42,659 nucleotides of DNA from an uncultured Lentisphaerales bacterium (GCA_964618405.1 CAZUAY010000001.1:1-42659), one strand, 5' to 3'; shown: positions 8,692 to 36,696, numbered from the stretch's first letter. The notes: generated by a model from the sequence alone, not told the origin. Numbers and translations are program-made.

Positions 8692-9696
8692 TCAGTCTAG
8701 CAGGTCCGTGGAGGGTTTTCTACGGTTGGTATCGCCTTCCAGCTCGGACTGGCATTTAATGCACATTTCAGCAAAGGGTAATGCATTAAGACGGGGGCGT
8801 TCGATTTTTTCTCCGCAACTTTCGCAGAGTCCGTAAGTGCCTTTTGTGATGGTCAGAATTGCATTGTTGATCTGGTTGATCTGCGATTGGTCGGTGCTGG
8901 CGCGGTCGAGACTGGTGACCCGTTCGAATGCATCCGTTCCGTCTTCATCTTGATTGACCTCATCATGGCGGAGGAGCGATTGTTCTCGCAATTCACTGAC
9001 TTGCGCGGTAAGGCGTTCGCGTAGAGCAAGCATCGTGGCGTAGAAGACATTCAGTTCTGCAGGTGTAAAATGTTTTGTTGTTTTTTTTCGGTTTTTTTTA
9101 GAAGGGGTGGATACTTTTTCGGGTTTAATTGTTACCGGATCCGGGGACGCTTTCGGTAGGAGAACAGGCTTTTTTACAGCGTCTTTGGGTGCCTTTGTGG
9201 TAATTTTGGCTTTATCCGCGGTTTGGGTCGTCTTGGTTGAAGTTGGTTTTTTGACCGTCATCTTTTTGTCAGGTGGTGTCACTTTTTTTGATGCTTTTCC
9301 GGACCGCTTAGCTGCAGCTTCTTCCACCGGCTTTGCAGCCGTTTTATGGGAAGGAGTTTTCGATGTTGCGGCTTTAGGATTCGTTTTTTTTACTGCTGTT
9401 TTTGCAGATTTAACGGTACCGCTGCTGCGTTTGGGGTCTTTTAAGCTTTTTGAAGAGGGCGAGATCTGCTTGGTGGCAGGAGAATTTGGAGAGGCTTTCG
9501 TTTTCGCGACGGCTTTTTTTATGGGAGAAGCTACAGTTTTGGACCGAGCGACAAGAGGCTTTTGGGAGTTTAAAAGCGCTACCTTTTTTGAAGGGATTGC
9601 CTTTTTGTCCGAGCCAGTCTTCGACTTTCCCGAACTTATTACTGCCTTTAATCCGGGCTGTATCTTGGTTTTGGAAGCTGTTTTTTTAGCGGTCAT
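8692..9696 (-). CDS. DksA/TraR C4 zinc-finger protein with a long lysine/alanine/proline/threonine-rich (histone-H1-like) N-terminal extension
   Basis: 334 aa. The C-terminal ~120 aa have a coiled-coil followed by CESCGEKIERPRLNALPFAEMCIKC (CxxC-N17-CxxC). The N-terminal ~200 aa are low-complexity K/A/P/T/S. Confidence 0.85.
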   Translation of the reverse strand: MTAKKTASKTKIQPGLKAVISSGKSKTGSDKKAIPSKKVALLNSQKPLVARSKTVASPIKKAVAKTKASPNSPATKQISPSSKSLKDPKRSSGTVKSAKTAVKKTNPKAATSKTPSHKTAAKPVEEAAAKRSGKASKKVTPPDKKMTVKKPTSTKTTQTADKAKITTKAPKDAVKKPVLLPKASPDPVTIKPEKVSTPSKKNRKKTTKHFTPAELNVFYATMLALRERLTAQVSELREQSLLRHDEVNQDEDGTDAFERVTSLDRASTDQSQINQINNAILTITKGTYGLCESCGEKIERPRLNALPFAEMCIKCQSELEGDTNRRKPSTDLLD

Positions 9697-9886
9697 TTCT
9701 CATCGTCTCTTAGGTTACGAAGGCTCTTTTTGTCTGATTAGAAATGCGCAGATGCTAGCACAAGGACATAGGAGAGTCAACTCCGCACTTGACTTGCGTG
9801 GGTAGTTTCTGTAAAAGTATCGGTCGTTCGTTCGGCTTCTTTATAAATCGGGTGGACATTTTAACAATAAGTATTTTGGAGATAAA

Positions 9887-11182
9887 ATGACAGACAAAGA
9901 AGTTGCGGTTCTGAATTACCACCTCGGTGGCAAGGTGTCACTCGGGATGCCGAAAGCGCTGAAGACGGTCGATGATCTCTGCCTCGCTTATACACCAGGC
10001 GTGGCCGTGGCTGTCAAGCAAATCGCTGCCGACCCAGAAAAGGTATTCGACTATACGGCGAAGGGTGGGCTTGTGGCGGTCGTCACGGACGGCACGGCGA
10101 TTCTCGGTCTCGGCGATCTCGGTCCGACCGCCTCGATCCCCGTCATGGAAGGCAAGGCCGTTCTGTTCAAGTCTTTCGCCAATGTCAATTCTTGGCCTGT
10201 GGTTCTCGATCACTGTCGCGAGGGCGGCTTGTCGACAGGACCAACGGATCCGCAACGTATTATCGACGCCGTCATGGCGATCGCTCCGATGTACGGCGGG
10301 ATTAATCTGGAAGATATCGCTTCGCCGGCATGTTTCGAAGTTGAGGATCGGCTGGCAGAGATGTTGGACATCCCAGTTTTTCATGACGACCAGTGGGGCA
10401 CGGCCATCATTGTTCTGGCAGGGACGACAAATTTCGCATGCCTCCGCGGGAGCGAAATGCGCGATCTGAAGGTCGTGATTAACGGAGCAGGGGCAGCCGG
10501 CACGCGGATCCGTGAGATGCTTCTGGCTGGCGGTGTTCGTGACGTTACCATGTGCGATAGCAAGGGTGTGATTTATAAGGGGCGGTCGATTAACAAGGCT
10601 CGTCACGAGCAGGTCGCCGTCGAAACGCCATTCCGAACTCTGGATCAGGTGATGGTTGGTGCCGATGTCTTTATTGGTGTTTCGAAGGCGGACTGTGTGA
10701 AGCCAGAATGGATTGCTTCGATGGCGCCGCATCCAGCGATTTTTGCGCTGGCAAATCCCGATCCTGAGATCTGCTATGAGGCCGTTGCTGAGGTGATGGG
10801 CGACAAGCCGTTCGTGATGGCAACGGGCCGTTCCGACTATCCAAACCAGATCAACAACGTCCTCTGCTTCCCGTTCCTCTTCAGAGGTGCACTCGATGTC
10901 CGAGCTCGCAAGATCACGCCACGCATGAAGGTCGCGGCGGCAGAAGCGCTTGCCCAGGCGGCTCGACGTCCTGCCGGTGCCGAGACGAAGGCGCTGTACC
11001 CAGGGGAGCCGCTGGAGTTCGGTCCGAAGTACATCATCCCGAAACCGTTCGACAAGGATATTTTCGCAGAGGTCTCTCTGGCCGTTGCGAAAACAGCAGT
11101 CGAAGATGGAGTCGCCCGCATCGAGAATTTTGATCCCGTGGCCTACAAGGCAAAGCTTATTGCTGACCGCGCACGTTTCTAA
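9887..11182 (+). CDS. NAD(P)-dependent malic enzyme (short form, no PTA-like domain)
   Basis: 431 aa. N-terminus typical of MaeB-type enzymes (LAYTPGVA), NAD-binding GAGAAG motif, and LANPDPE. Confidence 0.9.
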
Positions 11183-11226
11183 AGAGATAGCAATTCTGAT
11201 TTATGGCGATTCGCTACAGAGTGGAA

Positions 11227-11266
11227 GCGGCGTCCTTGCTGCTTTCTCACGCGGCGAGGACGCCGC
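11227..11266 (+). promoter_or_regulatory. Strong hairpin between the malic enzyme and PurH-like genes
   Basis: GCGGCGTCCT (11227-11236) is the perfect reverse complement of AGGACGCCGC (11257-11266), with a 20-nt loop. An alternative local stem CGCGGCG-AGGA-CGCCGCG (11250-11267) overlaps the 3' arm. There is no U-tract. Confidence 0.45.
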
Positions 11267-11297
11267 GTCTACAACAAACACAACCCATCTCCTCATT

Positions 11298-12563
11298 ATG
11301 GACTACAAGGCAGCTTATAAGACGATTATGGACGACCACTTTACGCCCGAAATGGAAATTTCTTTCATTGATGGCATCAATCGCCAGACCCTCCGATACC
11401 AAAAAGTATCGTGGGTGATCGATGGCGAAAATAAAGGGCTCCGCTATGGTGAGAATCCTGGTCAAGAAGCGGCCGTCTATAAGCTTGTGAATGGGAATCT
11501 CGTGCTGGGCGATGTTGAGATGCTCGCGCCGGGCAACACGTTGGCGTCCGAGCCAGAACTGTTGCAGTCCGGAAAACATCCGGGTAAGACCAACTTGACG
11601 GATGCCGACAATGCGCTCAACATTCTGCGCTATCTGGTGGATAAGCCTTCCGCTGTTATCGTGAAGCATAATAATCCGTGTGGCGCCGCCGTGGGATCAT
11701 CGCTTCAGGATGCGTACTATAAGGCGAACAAGGCCGATCGCCTAGCCGCCTTCGGTGGGTGCATCGCCGTCAACCGCGAACTCGACATTGACACAGCGAA
11801 GATGATCGCCGAGAACTATGCCGAGGTCGTCGTGGCTCCGGAGTTTGCCCCAGGAGTCATGGATATTTTTGCTACGAAAAAGAACTTGCGGGTGATGCGC
11901 ATCCGCAATATGGCGAGGCTCTCCGATTTCGTCGCCAAACGCGTTGTCGATTTCAAATCGCTCGTGGATGGGGGTGTTGTGGCGCAGTGGTCGTTCGTGC
12001 CGGAGGCGAGGACGGTGGACAAGCTGATGCCCGCGGAATGTAAGATGAAGGACGGAACGGTTCATCGCATCAAGCGTATGCCGACGGCAGCCGAGAACGA
12101 CGATCTCATTTTTGGTTGGCTCGTTGAAGCGGGTGTGACGAGCAATTCGGTGCTCTACATCAAGGACGGCGTTACGGTCGGTATTGGCACGGGCGAACAG
12201 GATCGAGTTGGCGTGGCAGAGATCGCTCGCGACAAGGCTTACCGCAAGTTGGCCGACTGGATTTCTTGGGAGAAGCATGCGACGCCGTATAATGATTTAA
12301 CGATGAAGTTCGGCGATGAAGGGAAGCGATGGGTCGCAGAGATTGACGAGATCGTCAAGGAGCGCAAGGGCGGCTTAATCGGCTGTAGCATGGTTTCCGA
12401 TGCGTTTTTCCCATTCCGTGATGGCGCTATGGTCGGCATTCGCGAGGGCATCACGGCGATCGTGCAACCCGGCGGGTCGATCAAAGATTGGGATGTCATT
12501 GATTGCTGCAACGAGGCCGACGTGGCGATGGTGTTCACCGGCCAGCGGTCGTTCAGACACTAA
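11298..12563 (+). CDS. AICAR transformylase-domain protein (PurH-like, no MGS/IMP-cyclohydrolase domain)
   Basis: 421 aa counting from the ATG at 11298 (MDYKAAYK). Motifs GENPGQ and KHNNPCGAA, with a typical PurH C-terminus (VFTGQRSFRH). The upstream part of the 10950 ORF overlaps the malic enzyme gene and was discarded. Confidence 0.85.
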   Translation: MDYKAAYKTIMDDHFTPEMEISFIDGINRQTLRYQKVSWVIDGENKGLRYGENPGQEAAVYKLVNGNLVLGDVEMLAPGNTLASEPELLQSGKHPGKTNLTDADNALNILRYLVDKPSAVIVKHNNPCGAAVGSSLQDAYYKANKADRLAAFGGCIAVNRELDIDTAKMIAENYAEVVVAPEFAPGVMDIFATKKNLRVMRIRNMARLSDFVAKRVVDFKSLVDGGVVAQWSFVPEARTVDKLMPAECKMKDGTVHRIKRMPTAAENDDLIFGWLVEAGVTSNSVLYIKDGVTVGIGTGEQDRVGVAEIARDKAYRKLADWISWEKHATPYNDLTMKFGDEGKRWVAEIDEIVKERKGGLIGCSMVSDAFFPFRDGAMVGIREGITAIVQPGGSIKDWDVIDCCNEADVAMVFTGQRSFRH

Positions 12564-13931
12564 GTGAAGAAAAAGTTTATACAAGGCGGATTCCGGGAGA
12601 TTCTGACCATTGCTGTTCCTTTGGTGATTACCAACTCGGCCTTCACCGTGATGCAGTTTTGCGACCGCATCTTTTTGGCGCGTTACGATGACCTCGCAAT
12701 TCAGGCGGCACTTCCAGCGGGGATTTTAGCCTTTGCTTTAATGTGTCTGTTCATTGCGATTGGCGGCTATTCGGGCACGCTGGTTGCACAGTATTTTGGG
12801 GCTGGCGAACGGCTTAAATGCGTTCATTCGACGGTGCAAGGCATCTACTTCAACCTTCTCTGCCTGCCGATATTTATTGCGCTCATTCCTTTGGGGTATT
12901 GGCTTATCGACTGTTTCGGCCATTCGGCAGAACTGGTCGTACAGGAACGGATGTACTTCGCCTGGATGATGTTCAGCGCCGTACCCGTGGGCTTGGGATG
13001 GGCTATCAGTGGTTTCTTCACGGGCCGGAGTCGGGTACGTCTCAACACCATCTCGAACGTGATCGGGTGTGTTATCAACATTGTGCTCGACTATGCTTTG
13101 ATCTTCGGGAAATTTGGACTCCCAGAGTGGGGGCTTAAAGGTGCAGCGATTGCAACCTGCATCGCATCCTGCGTGTCACCGACAATCCAGTTGGGTTTCA
13201 TGCTTCGCTCGAAAATTGTGCGCGAACTTGGGTATCGGAAAGCGTTTACGCCCGATTGGCCGATCATGGGGAAACTGATCCGGTTTGGGGTGCCCTCTGG
13301 CGTTCAGAACATGCTCGATGTCGGTGCATTTGCATTTTTCGTCATGATGACAGCCCGACTCGATTCCGTATCGCTGACAGCCAGCAACGTGGCGTTGAGC
13401 ATCAATTCGCTGGCCTTCTCACCGCTCATGGGCTTTGGTGCGGCGGCATCGATCAAAAGTGGTCAATACAAAGGGGCGGGGGAATTCGATTACGCGATGA
13501 AGTCCGGTTGGTCATCGCTCAAGCTCGGCTTGTGTTATATGGCCATTATCGGCTCGGTATTTGTCCTGCTTCCCGAGACGCTTCTCTCCCTATTCTTCTC
13601 TCAGGGTGAAACGGGGTTGGATAAGGCGGCATTTCTGCGCACAGGGACGATGCTCATGTACCTGATGACCGTTTGGGGCATTTTTGACACGGCAACCATC
13701 GTGCTTATCGGAGCGCTGAAGGGCGTGGGCGACACACGTTTCGTCATGGTCTACCTTTCGCTGATGGCTTGGTTCTTCTGGATTCCTGGTGAGCTCCTTA
13801 TCTTCAAGTTCGGCGGCGGAATCGTCCACGCGTGGATTCTGTTGGCCTTCTATATTTCAGTGCTCTCCTTTGGCTTCGCCAAACGCTGGCATGGTGGCAA
13901 GTGGATGGCAATACGCGTGATTGACCCGTGA
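12564..13931 (+). CDS. MATE-family efflux transporter
   Basis: 455 aa with about 12 predicted TM helices. MATE-type N-terminus (REILTIAVPLVITNS...DRIFLARY). The GTG start directly abuts the upstream stop codon. Confidence 0.88.
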   Translation: MKKKFIQGGFREILTIAVPLVITNSAFTVMQFCDRIFLARYDDLAIQAALPAGILAFALMCLFIAIGGYSGTLVAQYFGAGERLKCVHSTVQGIYFNLLCLPIFIALIPLGYWLIDCFGHSAELVVQERMYFAWMMFSAVPVGLGWAISGFFTGRSRVRLNTISNVIGCVINIVLDYALIFGKFGLPEWGLKGAAIATCIASCVSPTIQLGFMLRSKIVRELGYRKAFTPDWPIMGKLIRFGVPSGVQNMLDVGAFAFFVMMTARLDSVSLTASNVALSINSLAFSPLMGFGAAASIKSGQYKGAGEFDYAMKSGWSSLKLGLCYMAIIGSVFVLLPETLLSLFFSQGETGLDKAAFLRTGTMLMYLMTVWGIFDTATIVLIGALKGVGDTRFVMVYLSLMAWFFWIPGELLIFKFGGGIVHAWILLAFYISVLSFGFAKRWHGGKWMAIRVIDP

Positions 13932-13937
13932 AGGCGC

Positions 13938-14020
13938 GAGGAGAAGTCGCTAGGAGAAGTCGCTAGTCGCTAGGAGAAGTCGCTAGTCGCTAGTCGCTAG
14001 TCGCTAGTTGCTAGTAGTGA
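13938..14020. repeat. Heptanucleotide array (GTCGCTA)n with GGAGAA spacers (locus B, part 1)
   Basis: GTCGCTA starts at 13946, 13959, 13966, 13979, 13986, 13993 and 14000. Degenerate copies GTTGCTA and GTAGTGA follow. GGAGAA inserts lie at 13953 and 13973. Confidence 0.9.
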
Positions 14021-14026
14021 CAAACC

Positions 14027-14128
14027 AGCGTCAAAGTATCAAAGCGCCAAGTAGTCAAAGCTGCCCATTTTTTGCTGCGCTGAGGTTGGGCGGTGTGACA
14101 CTTTGATACTTTGTTGCTTTGACGCAGG
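14027..14128. repeat. Imperfect long inverted repeat of TCAAAG words (locus B, part 2)
   Basis: Left arm CAGCGTCAAAGTATCAAAGCGCCAAGTAGTCAAAGC. The right arm GTGACACTTTGATACTTTGTTGCTTTGACGC reverse-complements to GCGTCAAAGCAACAAAGTATCAAAGTGTCAC. Confidence 0.8.
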
Positions 14129-14182
14129 AAAAACTAACGCGGCTCTAGGGCTGGCCCACTCGCAACTTCTTGGTTCGACAGA

Positions 14183-14250
14183 GTTAGCGACAAAGCTAAC
14201 GACAAAGGTTTTTACTAACGACTAGCGACTTCTTGGCAGCGACAAAGGTT
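14183..14250. repeat. CGACAAAG word repeats, 12-bp period (locus B, part 3)
   Basis: CGACAAAG occurs at 14188, 14200 and 14240. It also contains CTAACGACTAGCGACTTCTT, the reverse complement of the AAGAAGTCGCTAGTCG(C/T)TAG-type words in part 1. Confidence 0.85.
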
Positions 14251-14263
14251 TTTCAAACGGGGT

Positions 14264-14372
14264 CTGGGGTGCCCCCCAGCGGAACCTACGCCCTACGCCC
14301 TACTCCCTACTCCCTTCTCTCCAACCTCACAACTCGCAACTCGCAACTCACTACTCGCGACTGTAATCGGGT
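14264..14372. repeat. G4-loop-C4 hairpin followed by a 12-unit in-phase heptad array (locus B, part 4)
   Basis: Hairpin CTGGGG-TGCC-CCCCAG at 14264-14279. In-phase heptads from 14286 read CTACGCC x2, CTACTCC x2, CTTCTCT, CCAACCT, CACAACT, CGCAACT x2, CACTACT, CGCGACT, GTAATCG. Confidence 0.9.
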
Positions 14373-14455
14373 ACTAATTTTTGATGCATTTTTATCCGAA
14401 AAATGGCACAATTAAAGGATTCATGTAACCCCATTCAGCAGAAAAGTAAACATCC

Positions 14456-15679
14456 ATGATTCTTGCAAACTCCCACTTCTCGAAAATCCAAGCTTCTTAT
14501 CTCTTCTCGAACATTGCCGCCAAGGTTAAGGCATTTACAGTTGCCAATCCTACGGCTTCTATCATTAAGCTCGGTATCGGTGACGTGACGCGTGCGCTCC
14601 CTCAGGCTTGTGTGGATGCGATGGCGGCGGCCACGCAGGAGATGGGAGCGGATGATACATTCCGCGGCTATGGTCCCGATTACGGCTACGACTTCCTCCG
14701 CGAGGCGATTGCACGCGTCGACTTCCAGTCACGCGGTGCGGCGATTGATGCCGACGAAATCTTCATCAGTGATGGCGCGAAATGCGATACGGGGAACTTC
14801 CAAGAATTGTTTGCAACGGACGGCATTACGATCGCCGTGCCCGATCCCGTCTATCCCGTTTATGTCGACACGAACGTCATGGCGGGTCGCACAGGCCAAG
14901 CGGTTGACGGACGCTACGAGGGGCTCGTTTATTTAGAATGCAACGAAGCGAATGGATTCTTCCCGGCACTTCCGTCGGAGCAGGTCGACCTCATCTATCT
15001 CTGTTTTCCCAACAATCCGACTGGCGCCACCGCCACCAAGGAACAGCTTAAGCAGTATGTGGATTATGCTCACGCGCACAAGGCGCTGATTCTCTTCGAT
15101 GCGGCGTACGAGGCCTTTATCCGCGACGAATCGCTTCCGCATTCCATCTACGAAATCCCAGGCGCGAAAGAAGTCGCGGTGGAGTTTCGTAGTTTCTCAA
15201 AGACGGCCGGCTTTACGGGAACACGTTGCGCCTACAGCGTGGTTCCCAATGAATGTCGCATTTTTTCCGAAGACGGCTCGCCCGTGCTGCTCGCTCCGCT
15301 CTGGCGTCGCCGGATGAGTACAAAATTCAATGGGGTTTCTTATCCCGTCCAGCGCGCCGCAGAGGCGATCTTCTCGGCTGAAGGACAGAAGCAAGCGACG
15401 GCCTTGATTGATGGCTATCTGGCCAACGCAAAGCACATCCGCGAACGGCTCAATGCCAAGGGATTTAAGACAACAGGAGGCGACAATTCTCCGTATATCT
15501 GGTTCAACACGGGCATGGATTCGTGGGCGTTCTTCGACAAGCTTCTCGCCGAGGCGAACGTGGTGACGACGCCGGGTTCGGGCTTTGGACGTTGTGGAAA
15601 TGGCTACATCCGTATCAGCGCGTTTAATTCGTTCGACAACGTTGTCAAGGCGATGGATCGCATCTGCAAAATTATCTAA
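14456..15679 (+). CDS. dapL: LL-diaminopimelate aminotransferase
   Basis: 407 aa. N-terminus N..F.K...SYLF..I...V is typical of DapL. PLP-lysine context is [15 protein letters not shown]. Confidence 0.88.
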
Positions 15680-15758
15680 TTTTAGCGCCCTAAGAAGACG
15701 AACACAGTTCCGACGCAAGACGGGAAATCACGAAACATCAGTCAACGAGAATTTCACC

Positions 15759-16646
15759 ATGATTATAGACGGGAAGGCCATATCGGCGCAGATTCGATCG
15801 GAAATCGCAATTGAATCCGCGAAACTAGCGGCGGCGGGAATGATTCCGGGCCTTGCCGTGATCCTCGTGGGTGAAAACCCGGCGTCCGTTTCTTATGTTA
15901 CGGCGAAGGAACGCGCCTGCCAAGAAACGGGTATCCGTTCATTTCCCATTCGCATGGGAGTCGAGACAACGCAGGCAGCACTTCTCGCCGAAGTGGCGAG
16001 GTTGAATGCCGACCCTACGGTCCATGGTATTTTGATCCAGTTGCCGCTGCCGAAGCATATCGCGGAGTCGGAAGTCATCACGGCGATTCTCCCTGAAAAG
16101 GACGTGGATGGATTTCATCCCGTGAGTTTGGGTAAACTGTTGCTTGGCGAGGATACGTTTGTTTCCTGCACGCCAGCGGGAATACTCGAACTGCTGAAGC
16201 GCAGTGGGGTTGAGACATCCGGCAAGCACGTCGTGGTCGTTGGCCGCAGCAACATTGTGGGTAAACCCGTTGCGAACTTGCTCTTTCAAAAACGCGCCGG
16301 TGCGAATGCGACGGTTACAATCTGCCATACAGGCACTCCCGACATGGGCGTATTCACACGTCAGGCGGATATTCTTATTGTCGCTGCAGGCCATCCGAAT
16401 ACCGTGACAGCAGACATGGTGAAGCCGGGCGTCGTTGTCATCGACGTTGGCGTGAACCGAATTCAAGATGCTACAAAAAAATCTGGTTTCCGCTTGGTCG
16501 GCGATGTCGATTTCGATGCGGTGGAGCCCATTGCCTCCGCGATTACGCCCGTCCCTGGCGGCGTTGGCCCCATGACCATCGCCATGCTTCTTTCCAACAC
16601 ACTCAAATCGGCTCGCCACTTTAGCGAGCTTCGGAAGAAAGTTTAA
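15759..16646 (+). CDS. folD: Bifunctional methylenetetrahydrofolate dehydrogenase/cyclohydrolase
   Basis: 295 aa from the ATG at 15759 (MIIDGKAIS). Motifs [21 protein letters not shown] and PGGVGPMT. Confidence 0.95.
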
Positions 16647-16655
16647 GTTCTAGCT

Positions 16656-17960
16656 ATGCGAATGAAAATAGCCCACGACGGCATTAAAAACCTTCACTAC
16701 GAAATCCGCGAGATCGTCGATTTCGGTAATGCCCTGCAGAAGCTCGGCATCCCCATTACGTGGGAGAACATCGGCGATCCTATTATGGCCGGTGAGAAGG
16801 TTGCGCCGTGGGTTAAGGAGACGGTTCGCAACATCCAACTGGATGATTTCTCGTGGGCTTATTGTCCGAGTCGCGGTGTGTTAAAGACTCGAGAGTTCCT
16901 TGCTGACCTCGCATCGAAGCGTCCTGGTGGGCTAAAGATCGGCCCAGACGACATTCTTTTTTTCAATGGTATTGCGGATGCCGTTGACAAAATCTACGAT
17001 CTCATTCAGAAAGACAAACGCGTTCTGATGCCCTCACCATCGTACCCGACGCACACATCGAATGAGGGCAAGCGTGGCGACTACTGTCATCTCCAATTCC
17101 AACTTAATCCGCGAAACGATTGGCAGCCGGATCTCGCGGAGATTGAAAACAAGATTAAATACAATCCGCAGGTTGTGGCTATCGCGATCGTGAATCCCGA
17201 CAATCCAACGGGTTCGGTTTACAAGCGCGAGACACTCGAAGGGATTGTGGCGATTGCGCGGAAATACGGCATCTTCATCATCTGTGATGAAATCTACTCT
17301 CAGATCTGTTACAACGGTGCGGAGACACTTCACATATCTGAAGTCCTCGGTGATGTTCCGGCGCTGGCGCTTCGTGGTATCTCGAAGGATTTCCCTTGGC
17401 CAGGCTCGCGCTGCGGTTGGATCGAAATGCTCAACCGTAACTCCTCCGAATATTTCCGCGAGTATTGCGATGCCCTCGTGAAGAGCAAGATGATGGAGGT
17501 TTGCTCCACCACGCTGCCACAGATGGCTATTCCAGCCGTTTATGGCGACCCGCGTTTTCCTGCGCTTAAAGCCGAACGTGCCAAAATTTTTGAGCGTCGC
17601 TCGAATCAAGTCTATGAGTATTTCCGAGACAATGTCCCCGGGACGATCGTGCGCCGCACGCAGGGAGCGTTTTATTTCTGCGTTGTTTTTGAAGATGGCA
17701 TTCTGAACGATAAACAAACACTTCCGATCGCAGACCCAGTCGTTCGCGCATTTGTAGAAAAGTCTGTCGAAGGCGTTGCGCTCGATAAACGCTTCGTCCA
17801 CTATATGATGGCTTCTGAAGGCGTCTGCGTCACGCCATTAACTGGGTTCCATACGGAAATTTTGGGATTTCGAATTACGACGTTAGCCTCGGACGACAAT
17901 CATCGCGCTGAGGTGCTCGTGCGCATCGGGAATTCTATCAAGCGTTACCTTGCGAGCTGA
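16656..17960 (+). CDS. Class I/II PLP-dependent aminotransferase (alanine aminotransferase-like)
   Basis: 434 aa. YEIREIV near the N-terminus, NPDNPTG, and PLP-lysine context SKDFPWPGSRCGW. Confidence 0.85.
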   Translation: MRMKIAHDGIKNLHYEIREIVDFGNALQKLGIPITWENIGDPIMAGEKVAPWVKETVRNIQLDDFSWAYCPSRGVLKTREFLADLASKRPGGLKIGPDDILFFNGIADAVDKIYDLIQKDKRVLMPSPSYPTHTSNEGKRGDYCHLQFQLNPRNDWQPDLAEIENKIKYNPQVVAIAIVNPDNPTGSVYKRETLEGIVAIARKYGIFIICDEIYSQICYNGAETLHISEVLGDVPALALRGISKDFPWPGSRCGWIEMLNRNSSEYFREYCDALVKSKMMEVCSTTLPQMAIPAVYGDPRFPALKAERAKIFERRSNQVYEYFRDNVPGTIVRRTQGAFYFCVVFEDGILNDKQTLPIADPVVRAFVEKSVEGVALDKRFVHYMMASEGVCVTPLTGFHTEILGFRITTLASDDNHRAEVLVRIGNSIKRYLAS

Positions 17961-18038
17961 GACACAGGGGAGAGCGTAGCGCTAAAATAACAGGACTAGC
18001 GTGAGCCCAATCGGGTAGTTGTCACGAGAGTCGTATTC

Positions 18039-18557
18039 ATGATACGCTTACTGGCGATGAAACATACGGATGAACAAAAGGGTCTCCCTTATCCTGCGGA
18101 TGAGGATTTGTTGGAATCCATTCGTGCTTACTTAGAAGGCTTTGGGAATAGTCCCGAAGTTAGGAATCCGATTGTCTGCGATCCTTCAGCCGATCTGGTT
18201 GGTTATCTTGCGCACGCCGACTTTACCTTCTCTCGTCGGTTGTTTCAGCTCATCCGAGAAAGCGGAATTGGCGAAGTAGAAGTCTATAAGCGTGCTCATG
18301 TCGATCGAAAACTCTTTTCGAAAATTCGGAGCGATTCCGCTTATCAACCGAAGAAGACCACCGTTGTTGCTTTTGCGCTGGCGTTGCGTCTCTCGCCTGC
18401 TCAGGCGCAAGCCCTTCTGGAATCGGCTGGTTATTCGCTTTCCAGAAGTGCTCACTTCGACCTGATCGTCCGCTACTTCCTTGAGCGAGGGATCTACGAT
18501 CTTCTTAAGATCAACGATGCGCTTTTTGAATTTGGGCAGCCGCTCTTGACGGTCTGA
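18039..18557 (+). CDS. Helix-turn-helix (XRE-like) domain protein
   Basis: 172 aa. The central segment FSRRLFQLIRESGIGEVEVYKRAHVDRKLFSKIRS...KKTTVVAFALAL.LS..QAQALLESAGYSLS resembles a widespread HTH family. The start could instead be the internal Met at residue 7. Confidence 0.65.
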   Translation: MIRLLAMKHTDEQKGLPYPADEDLLESIRAYLEGFGNSPEVRNPIVCDPSADLVGYLAHADFTFSRRLFQLIRESGIGEVEVYKRAHVDRKLFSKIRSDSAYQPKKTTVVAFALALRLSPAQAQALLESAGYSLSRSAHFDLIVRYFLERGIYDLLKINDALFEFGQPLLTV

Positions 18558-18671
18558 AAATGTCGCTCGTCAAGCGACACTTTCCGCTTCAGCTCATGAT
18601 AGGCTAGGGTTGTTTTCAAGGGATGCTCGGCATTCCAAACGTAAAACAAAAAATAAAACAAGGAGGCAGAT

Positions 18672-19289
18672 ATGAGCAATAACAATACGACAAATGAACA
18701 GGCTACAAACTATCGTCCTAAACTTTCGTTCTATCATGCGAACGGAAAAGGAACGGGCAGCGTCGCGAGCTTTGAGGTTGTCCCCGCCACCGGTGATCGT
18801 GATGGATCCGTTTTTCTAACACTCGCCCAGCAGAAGAGCGTGGCGTCGGGATCCAACGACCAAGGGAACCGTCAACATGCTACGTTTGACTGGATGAACC
18901 GCGTCACCGTCAAACTCAACTTCGGTGATCTTTGCCAAATGCTTCCCGTTTTCAAGGGGCTGGCGGTGAACGTCAACGAAGGTAAGGGGCTCTACCACGA
19001 CAGCCGTAGCACGACGACGATCATCAACCTTGTTCATCAGCTAGATCCGTATCCAGGGTATGCCCTCGACGTCTCGCGCCGTAGCAAGACTGGAGGTGAT
19101 CCTGCGCCGCGCATCCGCATCCTCTTTAATGCGGCCGAAGCGTATGGCCTGAGCGTGGTTTTGGAGCAGGCATTAGGGCTGCTTGCCTTCGGCATTCCGC
19201 GCGAATACCGTCCGAATACAGAAACGACTCCGACAGAGTCGGAGTCGGTCTCGAGGGAAGCGGATGACGACGAACCTGTCGGGTTCTAA
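18672..19289 (+). CDS. Hypothetical protein, possible Whirly-like ssDNA-binding protein
   Basis: 205 aa. A strong RBS AAGGAGG lies 7 nt upstream of the ATG. By eye the sequence parallels plant Whirly proteins (see finding). The C-terminal tail is acidic. Confidence 0.75.
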   Translation: MSNNNTTNEQATNYRPKLSFYHANGKGTGSVASFEVVPATGDRDGSVFLTLAQQKSVASGSNDQGNRQHATFDWMNRVTVKLNFGDLCQMLPVFKGLAVNVNEGKGLYHDSRSTTTIINLVHQLDPYPGYALDVSRRSKTGGDPAPRIRILFNAAEAYGLSVVLEQALGLLAFGIPREYRPNTETTPTESESVSREADDDEPVGF

Positions 19290-21283
19290 TCGGCGAGTAG
19301 GGCTCGGGCCTTTGCGACGACGTTTTCGACCGTAAAGCCGAAGTGCTGCTCCAGTGCTTCGGCGGGGCCCGATTCGCCAAAGGTGTCGAGCGTGACAGTT
19401 GCACCGTTGAGGCCAATGTACTTCGCCCATCCGAAGGAAGTGCCCGCTTCGACGACCATACGCTTCGTACAGCGTGGGTCGAGGACGCCGTCACGATAGG
19501 CCTGGGTCTGCTTCTCAAAGAGTTCCCAGGAGGGCATGTTGACGACCCGGACGTTGATGTCCTTTAGTTCAGCAGCGGCTTTAAGTGCCAGCGAAACTTC
19601 GGAGCCGGTGGCGATGATGATCAGCTCTGGGAGGCCTTGGCCGTTCTGGAAGAGGGTGTAGGCACCCTTCTCCAGCATCGCGGGTGCGGTGGCATCGGTG
19701 CGTTCAAGGACTGGCAGATTCTGTCGTGTGAACAACAGCGTGGTGGGGCCGGTTGTGTTCTTAAGGGCGGCAATGAACGCGGCACCCGTTTCGGAGGCAT
19801 CGGCGGGGCGGATGACCGTCATGTTAGGAATCGCGCGCATGGCGGCGAGGTGTTCGACCGGCTCATGCGTCGGGCCGTCTTCGCCGACATAGAAGGAATC
19901 GTGGGTGAAGGCATAGATCGCGGGCAGGTGGGAGAGGGCGGCGATGCGAGCGGCGGGGCGCAGGTAGTCGGAGAACACGAAGAACGTGGAGACGAAGCTG
20001 CGGAGACCTCCGTAGACGAGTAGGCCGTTTTGAATTGCTGCCATAGCGAATTCGCGTACGCCGTACTGGATGTTGCGACCGGAGAAATCAGTAGGCGTGA
20101 TAGCGGAATAACCTTCAAGCCAGGATTTGTTGCTCGGTGCTAGGTCGGCGGATCCGCCGACGAAGTTGGGCAGAGCCTTGGCGAGGGTCTGGATGACTTT
20201 ACCGAACGAAGCGCGTGTCGCGATCGGCTTATCGAAGGTTGGGAATTGGCTTTCCAGGTCGGCAGGGAGTTTTGAATCGTAAAAAGCATTCCATTTTGCT
20301 GCCAATTCTGGGTTGGCGAGTACGGCCGTTTCGTGGAGACGTTTCCAGCGACTGGCCAACCGTTGAGAGGCGGCATTTCGAATTGCGAAAATGTCGTAGA
20401 CGGATTCGGGAACGTAGAAATCTAACTCGGGTGGAAGGCCGAGGGCAAGTTTGGTGAGTTTAACCTCTTCTGCGCCCAGCGGTTCGCCGTGGGCCTTGGC
20501 TGAACCGGCTCTATTCGGGCTGCCCTTGCCAATGGTCGTTTTACAGAAGATGAGAGTCGGGGCGTCGGCGGTGCGCTTAGCCTTGAGGATGGCTTTGTCG
20601 ATCTGAACATAGTCGTGGCCGTCGATTTCAATTACTTTCCAGCCGTAGGCTTTGTAACGCGCTTTGACATCTTCGGTGAACGTGGCATCCGTGGAGCCTT
20701 CGATACAGATTTTGTTGGAGTCGTAGAACAGGATTAGCTTGTTAAGCTTCAAGTGCCCGGCAAAGGAAGAGACTTCGTGGCTGACGCCCTCCATCATGTC
20801 GCCGTCGCCGCAGAAGGCGTATGTGTAGTTATTGAAGAGTTCGGCTCCGGCTGAGTTGAAATGGGCCTCCATCATTTTTTCGGCGATAGCCATGCCCACG
20901 GCATTGCCGATGCCTTGGCCCAACGGGCCTGTCGTGGTCTCGACGCCTACGGTCTGTCCAACTTCCGGGTGTCCCGGGGTGTTGGAGCCTAATTGACGGA
21001 AGTTCTTGAGGTCGTTGATTGAGACAGGGAATCCTGTAAGATGCAGCAGGGAGTAGAGCAATGTGCAGCCGTGTCCACCCGAGAGTACAAAGCGGTCGCG
21101 GTTGGGCCACTTTGGATTTACCGACGTAGCGTTGAGGTGTTTCAACCAGAGGACGGCGGCGACATCGGCCATTCCGAGAGGAAGACCGGGGTGTCCTGAA
21201 TTTGCCTTTTGGACTGCGTCTATTGAGAGTCCCCGGATAACATTGGCCGCCAATTGATAGTCTGCTGTGCTAAAACCGCGCAT
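19286..21283 (-). CDS. tkt: Transketolase
   Basis: 665 aa from the Met at 21283 (MRGFSTADYQ). Motifs SGHPG and the TPP-binding GDGDMMEGVSHE. Its stop codon overlaps the stop codon of the convergent 18672-19289 gene. Confidence 0.95.
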   Translation of the reverse strand: MRGFSTADYQLAANVIRGLSIDAVQKANSGHPGLPLGMADVAAVLWLKHLNATSVNPKWPNRDRFVLSGGHGCTLLYSLLHLTGFPVSINDLKNFRQLGSNTPGHPEVGQTVGVETTTGPLGQGIGNAVGMAIAEKMMEAHFNSAGAELFNNYTYAFCGDGDMMEGVSHEVSSFAGHLKLNKLILFYDSNKICIEGSTDATFTEDVKARYKAYGWKVIEIDGHDYVQIDKAILKAKRTADAPTLIFCKTTIGKGSPNRAGSAKAHGEPLGAEEVKLTKLALGLPPELDFYVPESVYDIFAIRNAASQRLASRWKRLHETAVLANPELAAKWNAFYDSKLPADLESQFPTFDKPIATRASFGKVIQTLAKALPNFVGGSADLAPSNKSWLEGYSAITPTDFSGRNIQYGVREFAMAAIQNGLLVYGGLRSFVSTFFVFSDYLRPAARIAALSHLPAIYAFTHDSFYVGEDGPTHEPVEHLAAMRAIPNMTVIRPADASETGAAFIAALKNTTGPTTLLFTRQNLPVLERTDATAPAMLEKGAYTLFQNGQGLPELIIIATGSEVSLALKAAAELKDINVRVVNMPSWELFEKQTQAYRDGVLDPRCTKRMVVEAGTSFGWAKYIGLNGATVTLDTFGESGPAEALEQHFGFTVENVVAKARALLAD

Positions 21284-21391
21284 GTGAAACCTTTCTATAA
21301 TGTGAAGTGCGAAAACGTTCAAAAACAAATTATAACTATACCAAAGACATAAATAAAAATCAAACCTCCAGATTTACTTTTGTTATTTTCA

Positions 21392-21417
21392 CCCCTCGAA
21401 AACGGGGCGTTTTTTTT
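21392..21417 (+). terminator. Terminator-like hairpin plus T8 tract in a divergent intergenic region
   Basis: CCCCTCG-AAAA-CGGGG followed by CG and TTTTTTTT (T run 21410-21417). No + strand gene lies upstream of it. Confidence 0.3.
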
Positions 21418-21543
21418 AAATCGGTTTTTTTGTAATTTTTCATTTGAGTTTATCGGAGAATTAAGATAATATCATCCCTAATTCACGGCATACGGGTTTC
21501 CGTGGTCCTTCAAGTAGACTCAAGCAAAGAGGATATAAACGAT

Positions 21544-22170
21544 ATGAAACATGTACACAACAGATTTGCAGCGAGCTTGGCGGCGTGCCTTCTTGCCATG
21601 CTTTCGTCAAGCGGAGTCTACGCTCAGCAGCCAGCTCCGCAGGCGGCGGAAATTCTTCGGATTAAGAGCGTGACCGATCTTGGGCGAGAGTACCAACAGC
21701 GTGCGATAGGCATGGGAGCCAAAACGGCACGGCCTAAGACTTGGGGCGTTTTCGATGTCGTCTTTGATACGGCTCCTCTTTGGATTAATGAGTTGACCAT
21801 CACTTACAGTCTGATGCTGTTCAACGATAAGGCGAATCAGGGTGAGAAGGCTTTGTCGCTTATGAAGCTCACCGTTGAGTATCGAGATATTGCTCAAGGG
21901 CGCGAGCATCGGGCAGGGGTTGTGCTCCCCGCTGTGGCGCTTGAGCGTTATGGAAAGCCGATTGGTTTTGCCGCCCAACTTTTTATTGGCGGCAATCTCG
22001 TCGCTGAATCTGGTGTTGTTGACGGGTCGTTGAGAGGGCAGGAGCGGTGGTGGGCTAATCCCATTGTTATCGACAACCCGCTGGTTGAGAAGCGAGACGG
22101 CTACCTAGTTGAACGATCTAAATCTGTTTTCAGCTTGGTTGACATTGACAGTTACGAGGCAGGCCGATAG
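21544..22170 (+). CDS. Secreted hypothetical protein, first gene of the pilus-like cluster (positional equivalent of Amuc_1102)
   Basis: 208 aa from the ATG at 21544. Sec signal peptide (AACLLAMLSSSGVYAQQ). Its stop overlaps the start of the PilM-like gene. Confidence 0.75.
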   Translation: MKHVHNRFAASLAACLLAMLSSSGVYAQQPAPQAAEILRIKSVTDLGREYQQRAIGMGAKTARPKTWGVFDVVFDTAPLWINELTITYSLMLFNDKANQGEKALSLMKLTVEYRDIAQGREHRAGVVLPAVALERYGKPIGFAAQLFIGGNLVAESGVVDGSLRGQERWWANPIVIDNPLVEKRDGYLVERSKSVFSLVDIDSYEAGR

Positions 22171-23858
22171 TGTTTGCAAAAGATAGAATCCTTACGCTAG
22201 ACATCGGTGTAAGCAAGATCGTCCTTGGGGAGTTTTTAGTAAAGAATTCCTCCATGCCGATTCTTACTCGTTTTGTCGTACGCCCATCCAATCCGTTTGC
22301 AGCGGAAGCCGGCATTCCAACGATGGAATCGATAGCGGATCTCATCCGAGAGATGACGCTAGAAGGCGGTATCAAGGCGGCTCCACTTTACGTTATGCTT
22401 TCTGGGCAGGCGATTTTCCCCCGGTTTGTGAAGTTGCCGCCAGTTTCGTCTGACAAGATTGATGAGATGCTTCGATATGAAGCTTCTGAGAATCTCCCTT
22501 TCCCGATTGAAGAGGTTGTCTGGGATTATCAAGTTGTGTCTGCTGATGACGAGACCGAGCTTGACGCGCTCATTGTCGCGACCAAAGGTGAGACGGCGCA
22601 AGATGCGGCCGCGTGCGCTGAAAGGGCTGGGCTGCAATTAGCGATGGTCGATGCGATGCCGTTCGCCCTCTACAATTGCATCCGCTTTAATTCGTCTGAC
22701 AATGGAAAGTGCACGATGTTGCTCGATATCGGTGCACGTTCGACTGATCTTGTTTTCGTTGAAGGCAGTAAGATTTTTACTCGAAGCATTTCCGTTGCTG
22801 GCAATACGATCACAAACGAGATTGCTCGAAGTCTCGCTGTCTCCCCTGAAGAAGCAGAGAGGATCAAGAAAGATATCGGTTTCGTTGCTCTAGGTGGAAC
22901 CTACGCTGTAGTGGATGACGAAACGGCAGACAAGGTTTCTAAAATTATCCGGAATGTGGCCACGCGTCTCCATTCCGAGGTAAACCGATCTGTGAACTTC
23001 TATCGTAGCCAGCAAGGTGGGTCAGCTCCTGAAAAGTTGTTTTTAACAGGCGGTGCGGCACTGACCCGGCACATGGACACGTTTTTCCGCGAGAAGCTAG
23101 GGGTTGAGGTCGAATACCTAAATCCGTTTGCCAATGTAGCGGTTGCACCGGAACTTCAAGGCGAGACGGAAGCTCTTTTCCTCATGGCACCGTCGGTTGG
23201 GCTGGCCTTACGGGGAAGCATGAAGTGTCCCATCGAGATTAACTTAATGCCTCCAGCGGTACTCGCCTATCAGCGGTTTGCTAAGCGTATTCCGTTCTTC
23301 GCCGTATCGGTTGTAGGACTTATTCTGACACTATTGTGTTGGTTCTCGTATGCGAAAAATCTTCAGTCTGCTTACACGTCTCAGCACGAAATGGTCAAGC
23401 ATAGGCTTGACGAGCGTACCCGGTACCAACGGCAGATCGACACGGTCAACGTTAGCAGTAAAGCGCTAGAGGAAAAGATAAACTACATGTCGGCCCTGGT
23501 TGCGTCTCGAGCTTCGATCCCAGAGGCACTTTCTGCCGTTCGTGAAGCCATGATCAAGGACACCTGGTTGACGAGCATGACCTTCGACAAGGAAGATGAT
23601 AACGCAGCGTACATGAATCTCGTCGTTTGTGGGTTTAAGAGGGAACTCGACGAGAAGGTGACCAATAAATCTGCTGGCGAATTGCTCTTAGCCAATTTGC
23701 TTGAGTTGAAGGATCTGTTTCTGAAAGAGGGTTCTAGAGTCGAGCAAGAACGCTCGATCGAAAATGATCGGCTCAGTGAGCTTCATATCCGGCTGAAGCT
23801 CTCCAAGAAACTTGGGGCCATTGACGAAAATAGCCTGGCGGAGACGGCCACGAAATGA
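22170..23858 (+). CDS. PilM-like actin-fold ATPase fused to a PilN-like TM/coiled-coil segment (Amuc_1101-type)
   Basis: 562 aa. PilM/FtsA-like motifs LTLDIGVSKIV, MLLDIGARSTDLVFV and SVAGNTITNEIA. This is followed by a TM helix (FFAVSVVGLILTLLCWFSY) and a coiled-coil region. Confidence 0.85.
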   Translation: MFAKDRILTLDIGVSKIVLGEFLVKNSSMPILTRFVVRPSNPFAAEAGIPTMESIADLIREMTLEGGIKAAPLYVMLSGQAIFPRFVKLPPVSSDKIDEMLRYEASENLPFPIEEVVWDYQVVSADDETELDALIVATKGETAQDAAACAERAGLQLAMVDAMPFALYNCIRFNSSDNGKCTMLLDIGARSTDLVFVEGSKIFTRSISVAGNTITNEIARSLAVSPEEAERIKKDIGFVALGGTYAVVDDETADKVSKIIRNVATRLHSEVNRSVNFYRSQQGGSAPEKLFLTGGAALTRHMDTFFREKLGVEVEYLNPFANVAVAPELQGETEALFLMAPSVGLALRGSMKCPIEINLMPPAVLAYQRFAKRIPFFAVSVVGLILTLLCWFSYAKNLQSAYTSQHEMVKHRLDERTRYQRQIDTVNVSSKALEEKINYMSALVASRASIPEALSAVREAMIKDTWLTSMTFDKEDDNAAYMNLVVCGFKRELDEKVTNKSAGELLLANLLELKDLFLKEGSRVEQERSIENDRLSELHIRLKLSKKLGAIDENSLAETATK

Positions 23859-24850: not shown

Positions 24851-24863
24851 GGGGCATACTATC

Positions 24864-25904: not shown

Positions 25905-25963
25905 AAGCATCGGCGATTTGTTTCAGTCTTTAAAAAAAACGATTTCAAGGAGTAGTTCTTAAT

Positions 25964-36586: not shown

Positions 36587-36605
36587 TCTTCTTGCCGAGT
36601 GTTCT

Positions 36606-36632
36606 GTGCATGGGTGAACGGGGTGCAACTTG
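36606..36632 (+). repeat. REP-like unit upstream of the RAYT gene
   Basis: GTGCATGGGTGAACGGGGTGCAACTTG matches the GGTGCAACTTGCGCATGGGTGAGCGG units that are repeated downstream of the gene. Confidence 0.65.
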
Positions 36633-36696
36633 TTGGTTGATGGAACTGTGGGGTTTTGCTTGCAGTGCATTTTGAAGCGTAGTAGAATGCGGCAGT

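Follow-up and report, generated by a model that had tools for sequence, protein, structure and literature searches.

A 525-bp gap between two genes of an uncultured Lentisphaerales bacterium (positions 13932-14455 of contig CAZUAY010000001.1) is genuine non-coding DNA and probably consists of short tandem words and hairpin modules from a dispersed repeat family that inserts into the gene spacers of this Kiritimatiellia-type bacterium; modular elements and arrays grown by slippage would have met here at a synteny breakpoint. The original prediction, made from the sequence of this contig, had described this one gap; its modules recur, with order and orientation shuffled, in at least five spacers of the same 42.6 kb and in related metagenome-assembled genomes (MAGs). 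It is a new repeat family of a familiar kind, with arrays like the short tandemly repeated repetitive (STRR) sequences of cyanobacteria and mosaics like miniature inverted-repeat transposable elements (MITEs) and the repetitive extragenic palindromes (REPs) and bacterial interspersed mosaic elements (BIMEs), and no new kind of biology is involved.

The window, i.e. the whole stretch that was analysed, is a complete MAG contig of 42,659 bp with 53% GC. Its DapL is 96% identical to that of a MAG named 'uncultured Lentisphaerales' and 74-80% identical to those of Lentisphaerae/Kiritimatiellia MAGs. The gap lies between an open reading frame (ORF) with a Pfam MatE match (12564-13931, called MATE here) and an ORF encoding a class I/II aminotransferase (14456-15679); this class is what Pfam supports, and the name dapL is the label of the original prediction. 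Related loci are given L-numbers; L002 is the closest relative, and the DapL proteins of L006 and L003 are 78 and 80% identical to that of the window. The spacer had been said to hold no plausible gene and, indeed, its ORFs encode only 40 and 60 amino acids and have no Pfam match at E ≤ 0.1. Hidden small genes were also considered and rejected, since the 40-, 60-, 92- and 209-aa ORFs that run across repeats have no Pfam match. Known RNA families were not found at gathering score in the whole window, with noise alone at E ≤ 1 in two spacers, and exact-protein look-ups of two flanking genes gave no match.

Composition and assembly of the gap

From left to right, the gap contains the following parts.

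13938-14019, plus strand: left array, starting 7 nt past the MATE stop codon TGA (13929-13931); three GGAGAAGTCGCT(AG) units interleaved with AGTCGCT heptads, ending AGTTGCT AGTAGTG
14025-14128, no strand: central imperfect palindrome of (G/A)TCAAAG-type words, recognised as inverted repeat and by its fold
14149-14173, plus strand: word GGCTGGCCCACTCGCAACTTCTTGG, which carries GCAACTTCTTGG and is an inverted copy of 120-138 (95% complementary)
14174-14247, plus strand: W12 module, TTCGACA(G/A)AG, then two CGACAAAG at a 12-nt period (14174-14207), and a fourth CGACAAAG at 14240-14247
14210-14236, minus strand: inverted copy of the left-array unit (ACTAACGACTAGCGACTTCTTGG), pairing with 13955-13994 and closing a nested hairpin of ~290 nt
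14253-14284, plus strand: M3 hairpin module AAACGGGGTCTGGGGTGCCCCCCAGCGGAA (G4/C4), with the stem CTGGGG 14264-14269 / CCCCAG 14274-14279
14286-14362, plus strand: C-rich heptads, eleven in phase (CTACGCC twice, CTACTCC twice, CTTCTCT, CCAACCT, CACAACT, CGCAACT twice, CACTACT, CGCGACT); lag-7 match 79%, z = 8.3
14363-14370, plus strand: GTAATCGG, corresponding to nt 1-8 of the 12-mer terminal word GTAATCGGTCAG
14378-14455, plus strand: conserved dapL-proximal 78 nt, outside the repeat, marking the right border of the variable block

The gap as a whole had a lag-7 autocorrelation of z = 6.7 against dinucleotide shuffles. The left array, predicted as (GTCGCTA)n with GGAGAA inserts, was recovered by Tandem Repeats Finder (TRF) as an AGTCGCT array of period 7 with 8.4 copies (13958-14015), besides periods 20 (3.5 copies) and 13 (2.8 copies), and had a lag-7 z of 5.7; it matches 42026-42055 at 96.7%. 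The 12-bp period of CGACAAAG was confirmed as well, albeit more weakly (TRF 2.7 copies; lag-12 z = 2.8 in the middle of the gap), and the W12 module matches 24-56 on the reverse strand (94%) and 42236-42269 (88%); the triplet is also present in L006, L003 and L310. The word at 14149-14173 can also be read as ...CTCGCAACTTCTTGG, just left of the CGACAAAG triplet. The degenerate word GCRACTT[CG]TTGG occurs at three sites of the window (14162, 14225 and 36625) where ~0.02 are expected. The G4/C4 hairpin was found as predicted, and further copies of M3 were found at 42305-42335, in L006 (12375 and 16034) and in L027; the 6-bp stem is 100% paired in five sequences, with one compensatory pair (CG to AU, two sequences). 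Since 46 of 500 shuffles equalled this pairing, the evidence from covariation is weak. The C-rich heptads are in phase and change gradually, as had been described, but number eleven and not twelve. Homology to 42337-42372 extends over their first ~40 nt. The last six heptads belong, as reverse complements, to the AGTNGYK family, and the junction of heptads and GTAATCGG recurs on the opposite strand at 265/266 and 42025/42026 (25 nt, 96%).

The original prediction had named a count of heptamers in intergenic versus coding DNA as the test that could refute it. AGTCGCT was found 13 times in intergenic and twice in coding sequence (3.8 vs 0.05 per kb, p = 5e-13), CGACAAAG nine times vs three times (p = 2e-8), and GACCGATTAC and GGAGAAGT each five times vs zero. 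The words of the gap are thus enriched 20-80-fold in intergenic DNA and the heptads are specific for it. TCAAAG was rejected as a word of the family because it is not enriched (5 intergenic, 31 coding). The inverted repeat of ~100 bp that had been described for this word does exist: its arms (14027-14049 / 14096-14118) are 83% complementary and the region 14020-14130 folds with -48.7 kcal/mol (z = -5.4). Right-side words were also correctly recognised as reverse complements of left-side words (13955-13978 / 14210-14233, 88%; 13975-13994 / 14214-14233, 95%). Folded as RNA, the whole gap reached -166 kcal/mol (z = -4.3), better than all shuffles. A cruciform comprising the whole gap, as proposed before, was not obtained; the fold is a nested hairpin from 13946 to 14236 (~290 nt) and the right third (14250-14455) lies outside of it.

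An assembly artefact, i.e. repeats that were mis-joined or collapsed, is highly improbable. Logan contigs from the run SRR8925788 are identical to the window at 9564-14007 and 14342-16307; one (L208) covers the left array up to 14007, the other (L001) begins at 14342, and both end inside arrays. The edges of the gap are real, since both are reproduced exactly by these independent contigs, which contain 76 nt of the left array and 21 nt of the right one. Furthermore, the modules are present in MAGs from other projects and those of the interior have homologs elsewhere in the contig. In favour of an artefact, short-read contigs break in the arrays, and the interior (14008-14341) as well as the exact copy numbers of the arrays are known from this one assembly only.

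Sister copies and insertion sites

Outside the gap, the following copies of its modules were found in the window.

1-283, minus strand: third mosaic, truncated by the contig start; minus-strand order CACGACT CGCGACT directly joined to GTAATCGGTCAG, M5, CGCAACT CACAACT TTCTCC, three W12 words, CTCGCAACTCACAA
30864-30895, plus strand: short array AGTCGCG AGTTGCT AGTGGCT CGTCGCG, 9 nt past the stop codon of a Mg-chelatase/ComM-like gene; 94% complementary to 38023-38053
37946-38069, plus strand: second insertion (~124 nt), starting with GTAATCGGTCAG, followed by a GGGG/CCCC hairpin and ending with C-rich heptads
41985-42390, plus strand: sister element, an insertion of 406 nt with an empty site in L309

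Orthologs of the gene at 39554-41977 were taken from three related MAGs (L308, L309 and L310). In L309, the downstream spacer is 117 nt long and uninterrupted (...GGGTAGCATTTTATTCTTTTCACCCC...), and the window carries 406 nt extra at this site. The block is flanked by TATTTTT and CATTTTT vs a single CATTTTA in L309, i.e. ATTTTT (6-7 nt) is duplicated. It has perfect 12-nt inverted termini (GTAATCGGTCAG at 41986-41997 and CTGACCGATTAC at 42378-42389) and folds with z = -5.25. Its interior starts with a second, inner CTGACCGATTAC, which forms an 18-bp hairpin, followed by four AGTCGCT, the 60-nt unit M5 and GAGAAGT with five AGTTGCG, and ends with a unique stretch, three W12 words, M3 and CTACNCC heptads. 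Judged by sequence, the block looks like a MITE, a small non-autonomous transposon, of which it has the classic marks. The same site is occupied by other fillers in L308 and L310, and the filler in L310 includes a reversed W12 triplet. The second block (37946-38069) is absent from L309 and L310, which have a common empty site; its terminal heptads (CGCGACC AGCCACT CGCAACT CGCGACC) adjoin GTTTTT and a right terminus is missing. The locus at 42 kb had also been read as a terminator hairpin that was separated from its T-tract when an insertion duplicated 12 nt; this reading was dropped because the empty site in L309 places the hairpin itself inside the insertion and makes the 12-mers its termini.

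Modules other than tandem words are shared between the loci. Between 141-200 and 42046-42105, the 60-nt unit M5 has 98% identity over 47 nt, and the junction of CTGACCGATTAC and AGTCGCK heptads is found at three places in the window. The hairpin together with the CTACNCC heptads aligns base for base between 14253-14322 and 42305-42372, which shows that the array was copied as a unit and is not a purely local product. The order W12, hairpin, C-rich heptads, start codon is conserved across loci and three genomes; in L006 and L003, a CGACAA(A/C)G triplet is followed by the hairpin (in L006), by C-rich words and by the start codon. The exact 12-mer GTAATCGGTCAG has five copies in the window, all intergenic, vs ~0.005 expected. 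None was found in ~59 kb of the three closest MAGs, but L006 and L032, which are more distant, have one copy each. The gap modules in general are absent from the same ~59 kb and present in L006; on the loci compared, such a patchy distribution is typical of mobile DNA.

DNA uptake sequences, as known from Neisseria and Haemophilus, often sit as inverted pairs in terminators. The 12-mer could be such a sequence and the rest of the gap unrelated filler: the exact word is conserved in three genomes, an inverted pair makes the 18-bp hairpin right after a gene, and a DprA-like domain is encoded nearby. We consider this extremely improbable, and rejected the class, since the density is 0.12 per kb and intergenic alone, no copy is present in the three closest relatives, and the copies are the borders of insertions.

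The gap itself was found at a synteny breakpoint because the genes next to MATE and dapL differ in relatives: the downstream neighbour of MATE in L311 and L314, the upstream neighbour of dapL in L003-L006. In L314, the MATE stop codon is followed by a different heptad array (GCCACTA, 3.9 copies). A comparison of orthologous MATE-dapL spacers, as had been suggested, failed since this adjacency is not conserved; filled and empty sites were revealed by the sister spacers instead. L002 is collinear with the window from 14378 to 25585 (blastn, ~85% identity). Its homology restarts 8 nt past GTAATCGG, so that the right border of the gap is formed by 8 nt of the 12-mer just where homology to the closest relative is about to resume. 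The conserved 78 nt probably contain the dapL promoter (TTGATG-17 nt-TGGCACAAT) and leader; the promoter was read by eye and not called by the consensus scan. Just upstream of the restart, L002 (60-105) reads ...GTCGAGATTACAATAGTGCG..., a GATTAC-like word followed by the heptad-like AATAGTG, in the orientation opposite to ...CGCGACTGTAATCGG at 14363-14377 of the window; possibly another element, or an inverted one, occupies this site.

Gene-spacer changes associated with other words were also observed. In the close relative L035 (DapL 96% identical), ~390 nt rich in word arrays (3141-3527, e.g. three copies of CCCTCGAC) replace a 78-nt spacer, which in the window lies after the second aminotransferase gene (17961-18038); this stretch is followed by a gene that appears Fur-family-like by eye and is absent from the window, a change in gene content associated with repeats. 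The MATE of L314 is 73% identical and preceded by a 300-nt purH-MATE spacer (3701-4000) with TTAGGGGTGCG-type words and four copies of GTCACGGA; in the window, purH and MATE abut. Downstream of dapL, the longest folD ORF, with the TTG at 15585 as start, would have 95 nt in common with dapL; since its Pfam match begins at residue 61, folD probably starts near 15760, which leaves a repeat-free dapL-folD spacer of ~80 nt in the window, and this spacer is filled with repeats in L006 and L003.

Taken together, we propose that small non-autonomous repeat modules are piled up and nested in the gap, together with tandem arrays grown in place. The modules, i.e. the CGACAAAG 12-mer triplet, the G4/C4 hairpin with its CTACNCC heptads, the GAGAAGT and AGTYGCK units and the 12-mer GTAATCGGTCAG, would move as blocks between spacers. 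For the two sister spacers, block transfer is shown directly since they are precise insertions relative to the relatives. Slipped-strand mispairing would then expand the words and gradually diversify them in phase, often right beside a terminal word. As mobilising enzyme, one would by default expect a transposase that recognises the 12-nt termini; a RAYT/DprA-like protein, RAYT being a REP-associated tyrosine transposase, is a weaker candidate.

Tandem arrays and the RAYT-like gene

The gradual in-phase change of the heptads is the signature of slippage. Period 7, which had been emphasised before, is not special here. Arrays of at least 2.8 copies were compared between 204 kb from about ten related genomes and 1.06 Mb from 70 other bacteria. 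Period 7 was enriched 3.7-fold in the lineage (p = 2e-6), but period 8 even 12.5-fold (p = 5e-10) and period 12 5.2-fold (p = 0.003); periods 6 and 9 were not enriched. The phenomenon of the lineage is short non-codon words in spacers, not heptads specifically. The words vary by spacer and genome (GTCCAAA, CTAATCC, TTGGAAC, TTTTGCGT, TGGTTTCA, GCCACTA). At four places the arrays begin right after the 12-mer; one of these arrays, in L006 (GATTAC GATTAC GGGAAC GCGAAC...), is in phase with the GATTAC word. GATTAC was found within 12 nt of arrays of period 6-9 in 5-6 of 73 cases in the lineage vs 3 of 280 in controls (p ~ 0.01).

These arrays could have arisen as purely local STRR-type arrays by slippage in place, with the likeness between spacers due to convergence or mutational bias and nothing moving at all. 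The gradual drift of the heptads in phase, the many different words across spacers and genomes and the lineage-wide enrichment of periods 7 and 8 agree with this, and so does a control with scrambled words: AGTYGCK gave 24 stretches in viral contigs, and composition-matched heptads in triplicate gave similar numbers (13, 44 and 18). The shared non-repetitive modules (M5, the hairpin including its flanks, and five exact copies of the 12-mer), the base-for-base alignment of array and hairpin across loci and the whole blocks with precise borders relative to empty sites are not explained by this view. We consider it unlikely for the gap, and it is largely refuted for the sister loci.

Since the scrambles were as common as the real word, the cross-phylum AGTYGCK family seen in at least 120 metagenome contigs (AGTYGCK three times in tandem, GC 29-73%) was rejected as generic background. 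The other gap modules did not co-occur in these contigs, and RAYT-family genes were not found near their arrays. The arrays had no bias in orientation towards genes at these loci; the ORF calls are confounded, however, because AGTTGCG arrays are open in all frames and AGTCGCT arrays end any ORF. A common AGT/ACT core of bacterial heptamer arrays (34-37% vs 21% expected) was seen in hit and control loci alike and was too weak to keep.

About 22 kb from the gap, a gene was found that could act on hairpin repeats.

36753-37682, plus strand: RAYT-like Y1/HUH transposase with a DprA-like fold, 309 aa
37684-37888, plus strand: cognate repeats of this gene; hairpin CCTGTAAACAGG over the stop codon, then three GGGGTGCAACTTGCGCATGAGGGAG and a 42-nt unit

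The protein matched NCBIfam REP_Tyr_transpos with E = 5.5e-14 and 52.3 bits (equivalog cutoff 80), scored 22.5 in Pfam (cutoff 23) and has the motifs DHFHG and YxxYIRDNP (HUH and catalytic Tyr). Its AlphaFold2 model (pLDDT 87.7) was similar in Foldseek to ISDra2 TnpA (E ~ 5e-6), to the RAYT of Escherichia coli (4ER8, root-mean-square deviation 3.0 Å) and to DprA (4ljk, E = 1.3e-4), with further fold matches to IS608 TnpA, ShosA and the PDB entries 2xma and 2vjv. By its predicted structure, the protein is a divergent relative of RAYTs with an added DprA-like domain, which is probably the C-terminal half; this half has no Pfam match and was placed by its pattern of secondary structure. The family has at least 677 members in MAGs of Kiritimatiellia, Lentisphaerae and Verrucomicrobia, and we know of no description of a Y1/HUH-DprA-like fusion. 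The protein is a candidate for acting on hairpin repeats. The 42-nt unit is also present upstream of the gene (36699-36740; the upstream flank spans 36590-36745), and the gene is flanked by a tandem cognate unit, a small hairpin with GGGGTGCAACT(T)G, in four genomes (L202/L203, L309 and L310 share the flanks). In another Kiritimatiellia genome (L205/L206/L207, 10001-11041), a homolog lies between rpsG and fusA in the str/S10 ribosomal cluster, which is conserved apart from this gene, next to a Gp49/helix-turn-helix toxin-antitoxin-like pair, and its stop codon is located inside a GTAATAG heptad array.

A REP/BIME-type system driven by this gene, in which the hairpin modules would be substrates of the transposase and nicking beside hairpins, e.g. 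after ...GATTAC, would seed the arrays, is rather unlikely. The gene is encoded in the same contig and has its own flanking tandem repeats in four genomes, GCRACTT[CG]TTGG is found in the flank upstream of it as well as twice in the gap, AAGTYGC words lie within the 42-nt flank unit, arrays begin right after GATTAC and are associated with this word as described above, and a DprA-like fold suggests handling of single-stranded DNA. On the other hand, the cognate unit GGGGTGCAACTTG was found next to the gene alone and not dispersed in the window or the loci compared, and the 12-mer near the gene is part of an insertion absent from relatives, not a conserved flank. Y1 transposases work without target duplication, yet the 406-nt block has one, and the modules are absent from the sequence sampled of relatives that carry the gene. 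A conserved GTAG (or CGTC) tag, as in REPs, was not found: GTAG is located 5-6 nt from the M3 stem in two window copies, both L006 copies have GGAG, and the 12-mer hairpin starts with GTAA. Since the cognate unit is not dispersed, the 12-mer is no conserved flank and Y1 enzymes leave no duplication, the link between gap and gene is weak; the ties that remain are one degenerate 12-nt word, whose match is post hoc, and the modest association of GATTAC with arrays.

More specifically, the arrays could be seeded enzymatically if the Y1/HUH and DprA-like protein nicked single-stranded DNA after the ...GATTAC foot of a hairpin and repair or re-ligation added units of 6-8 nt. We regard this as very unlikely. 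It is compatible with the data because arrays follow the 12-mer at four places, the L006 array is in phase with GATTAC, the word is associated with arrays, and periods 7 and 8 are enriched in a lineage that carries the fusion protein. If true, it would give a mechanistic origin for STRR-type arrays; to our knowledge, it has not been explained since 1990 why 7-nt units are in excess in the intergenic DNA of bacteria.

Possible roles and related repeat systems

Owing to a CTAG in every unit of the left array, none of the six reading frames is without a TAG right behind the MATE stop codon. The C-rich array has practically no structure (-7.3 kcal/mol over 96 nt). With 50% C and 8% G, 14285-14362 is the most C>G-skewed stretch of 78 nt among 42,582 windows, and the tract at 42335 ranks third. 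Loading sites of Rho (rut) are C-rich, G-poor and unstructured stretches of RNA of about 70-80 nt, and 14285-14362 agrees with this description in composition and structure. In about 9 of 11-12 spacers, a small tally oriented by hand, the C-rich words lie on the sense strand of the gene downstream. Phase-variation (contingency) repeats sit in a promoter spacer or a reading frame and differ in copy number between cells or strains; the arrays of the gap are located outside ORFs and upstream of the conserved 78-nt promoter-proximal region. We favour the view that the modules are selfish and tolerated, perhaps also of use to the cell as boundaries of transcription: the nested hairpin of ~290 nt would form a cap or a terminator at the 3' end of the MATE transcript, the array with TAG in six frames would halt stray translation, and the C-rich tract would shield the dapL promoter from read-through as a Rho loading site.

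Alternatively, the W12 triplet, hairpin and C-rich tract could be a regulatory cassette that is selected and kept upstream of genes for its function, be it a possible protein-binding array (three 8-mers with a 12-nt pitch), an RNA hairpin or a Rho-loading or S1-binding leader. This would overlap with mobility, and we consider it doubtful. Order and orientation towards the start codon are alike in 5-6 spacers of three genomes (DapL 78-80% identical), the C-rich words of L006 and L003 end 16-20 nt from ATG, the C>G skew is extreme without structure, and the hairpin stem has one compensatory pair. However, the downstream genes (dapL, folD, a secreted protein and a prenyltransferase-like protein) share no function, close relatives lack the cassette at the same sites, the tract in the gap is upstream of the conserved promoter region and not in a leader, the covariation is weak, and W12 is also found reversed (24-55 of the window, and L310).

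Several observations weigh against modular elements with slippage-grown arrays at a breakpoint. An empty site for the gap itself was not found, since MATE-dapL adjacency is not conserved and the L002 contig ends 183 nt upstream of dapL. The gap has a partial terminal word at one end (8 nt, 14363-14370) and none at the MATE side, the insertion at 37946-38069 is one-ended and has no clear target duplication, and neither an autonomous element nor a matching transposase was seen in 42.6 kb of this genome. The central palindrome has no second copy in the window or the related loci compared, so that part of the gap is not dispersed DNA. That the blocks are insertions rather than deletions in the relatives would follow by parsimony from two or three MAGs, and their absence in relatives is due in part to assembly, because repeat-rich spacers are under-represented in short-read MAG contigs. 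As to function, consensus sigma-70 promoters and intrinsic terminators were not called in the two main spacers, and the proposed roles are inferred from fold and composition.

The original prediction had likened the gap to the STRRs of heterocystous cyanobacteria, which are intergenic tandem repeats of 7-bp units that can form hairpins and have no known function (PMC2670836). This likeness stands as to form: units of 7 nt are repeated in intergenic DNA alone (TRF period 7 with 8.4, 4.4 and 5.3 copies; lag-7 z = 6.7 to 8.3) in at least five spacers of 42.6 kb, several words per genome are often mixed in one spacer and can form hairpins, and length and sequence differ between close relatives, with contigs breaking there. 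It does not single out cyanobacteria, since heptamer arrays are also known elsewhere: TAACTGA in Beggiatoaceae and Bacteroidetes, besides cyanobacteria (PMC4679880), and GGGAATC in intergenic regions of Xanthomonas (PMC4692102). Unlike STRRs, with canonical STRR1 units such as CCCCAGT, the units here are AGTYGCK and CTACNCC, the phylum is not cyanobacteria, periods 8 and 12 are enriched too, and the arrays are tied to non-repetitive modules and the 12-mer, some of them inside insertions with defined borders. The 406-nt block shares with MITEs such as Correia, ERIC and Nezha that it is non-coding, has perfect 12-nt terminal inverted repeats and an AT-rich target duplication of 6-7 nt, is missing from the corresponding site of a relative and can fold as a long hairpin; it differs by its interior, a shuffled mosaic with tandem arrays and an extra internal terminus, and one-ended copies are found here besides.

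PVC (Planctomycetes-Verrucomicrobia-Chlamydiae) bacteria are known to have REPs with a GTAG tag and RAYT transposases (PMC3733652). REPs are extragenic imperfect palindromes of 20-40 nt in high copy. Like REPs, BIMEs and REPINs, the elements found here are extragenic hairpin modules (M3, M5 and the 12-mer pair, 2-5 copies each in the window) in mosaics after genes, and the contig carries a RAYT-like gene with its own repeats. They differ by the target duplication, and the protein by its score below the equivalog cutoff and its extra DprA-like domain; its GGGGTGCAACTTG flank units are absent elsewhere in the window and loci, with the degenerate 12-nt word alone in common. The BOX elements of Streptococcus pneumoniae have the structure boxA-boxB(n)-boxC, with one module iterated, and form stable RNA structures. 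They resemble the gap as modular intergenic elements with a variable number of an iterated module, but are not related in sequence, and iterate 45 nt instead of 7-12 nt; the order of modules is not fixed in the family found here. A CRISPR array was rejected because it needs repeats of 23-47 nt and unique spacers of similar length, whereas the units of the gap have 7-12 nt and are contiguous. The original prediction knew of no equivalent in PVC bacteria and, indeed, the searchable literature yielded nothing comparable for Kiritimatiellia; searches with heptad and 12-mer strings gave unrelated primer-type matches alone.

Basic concepts remain unchanged: heptamer arrays in intergenic DNA, MITEs and REP/RAYT systems were established before. 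STRR-like words and MITE/REP-like hairpin mosaics are usually treated apart and are joined here in single insertions with defined borders, which makes the locus a concrete system for how tandem words arise and spread. The element would be a transcription boundary that can be moved about if its hairpin and C-rich tract function in termination or insulation. Repeat spacers may also drive rearrangement, and since short-read assemblies break at them and gene order changes there, they shape the contiguity of MAGs.

Apart from the repeat family, the window encodes a type II restriction-modification pair on the minus strand (1784-4259), an endonuclease of the MvaI/BcnI family (E = 6e-56) and a C-5 cytosine methyltransferase (E = 8e-63), adjoining genes for a SpoU methylase and an HD-domain protein. 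A pilus-type cluster (21502-29173) encodes a PilM-like protein with ATPase fold, a TSP3-repeat protein, a secretin and a pilus-like protein of the Amuc_1100 family (NCBIfam E = 4e-16, below cutoff). The secretin ORF (1069 aa, 25964-29173) contains, in its N-terminal part, a 30-nt unit in 9.8 copies with 94% identity (26446-26740; degenerate copies from 26386 to 26803), which is translated into a tandem repeat of 10 residues.

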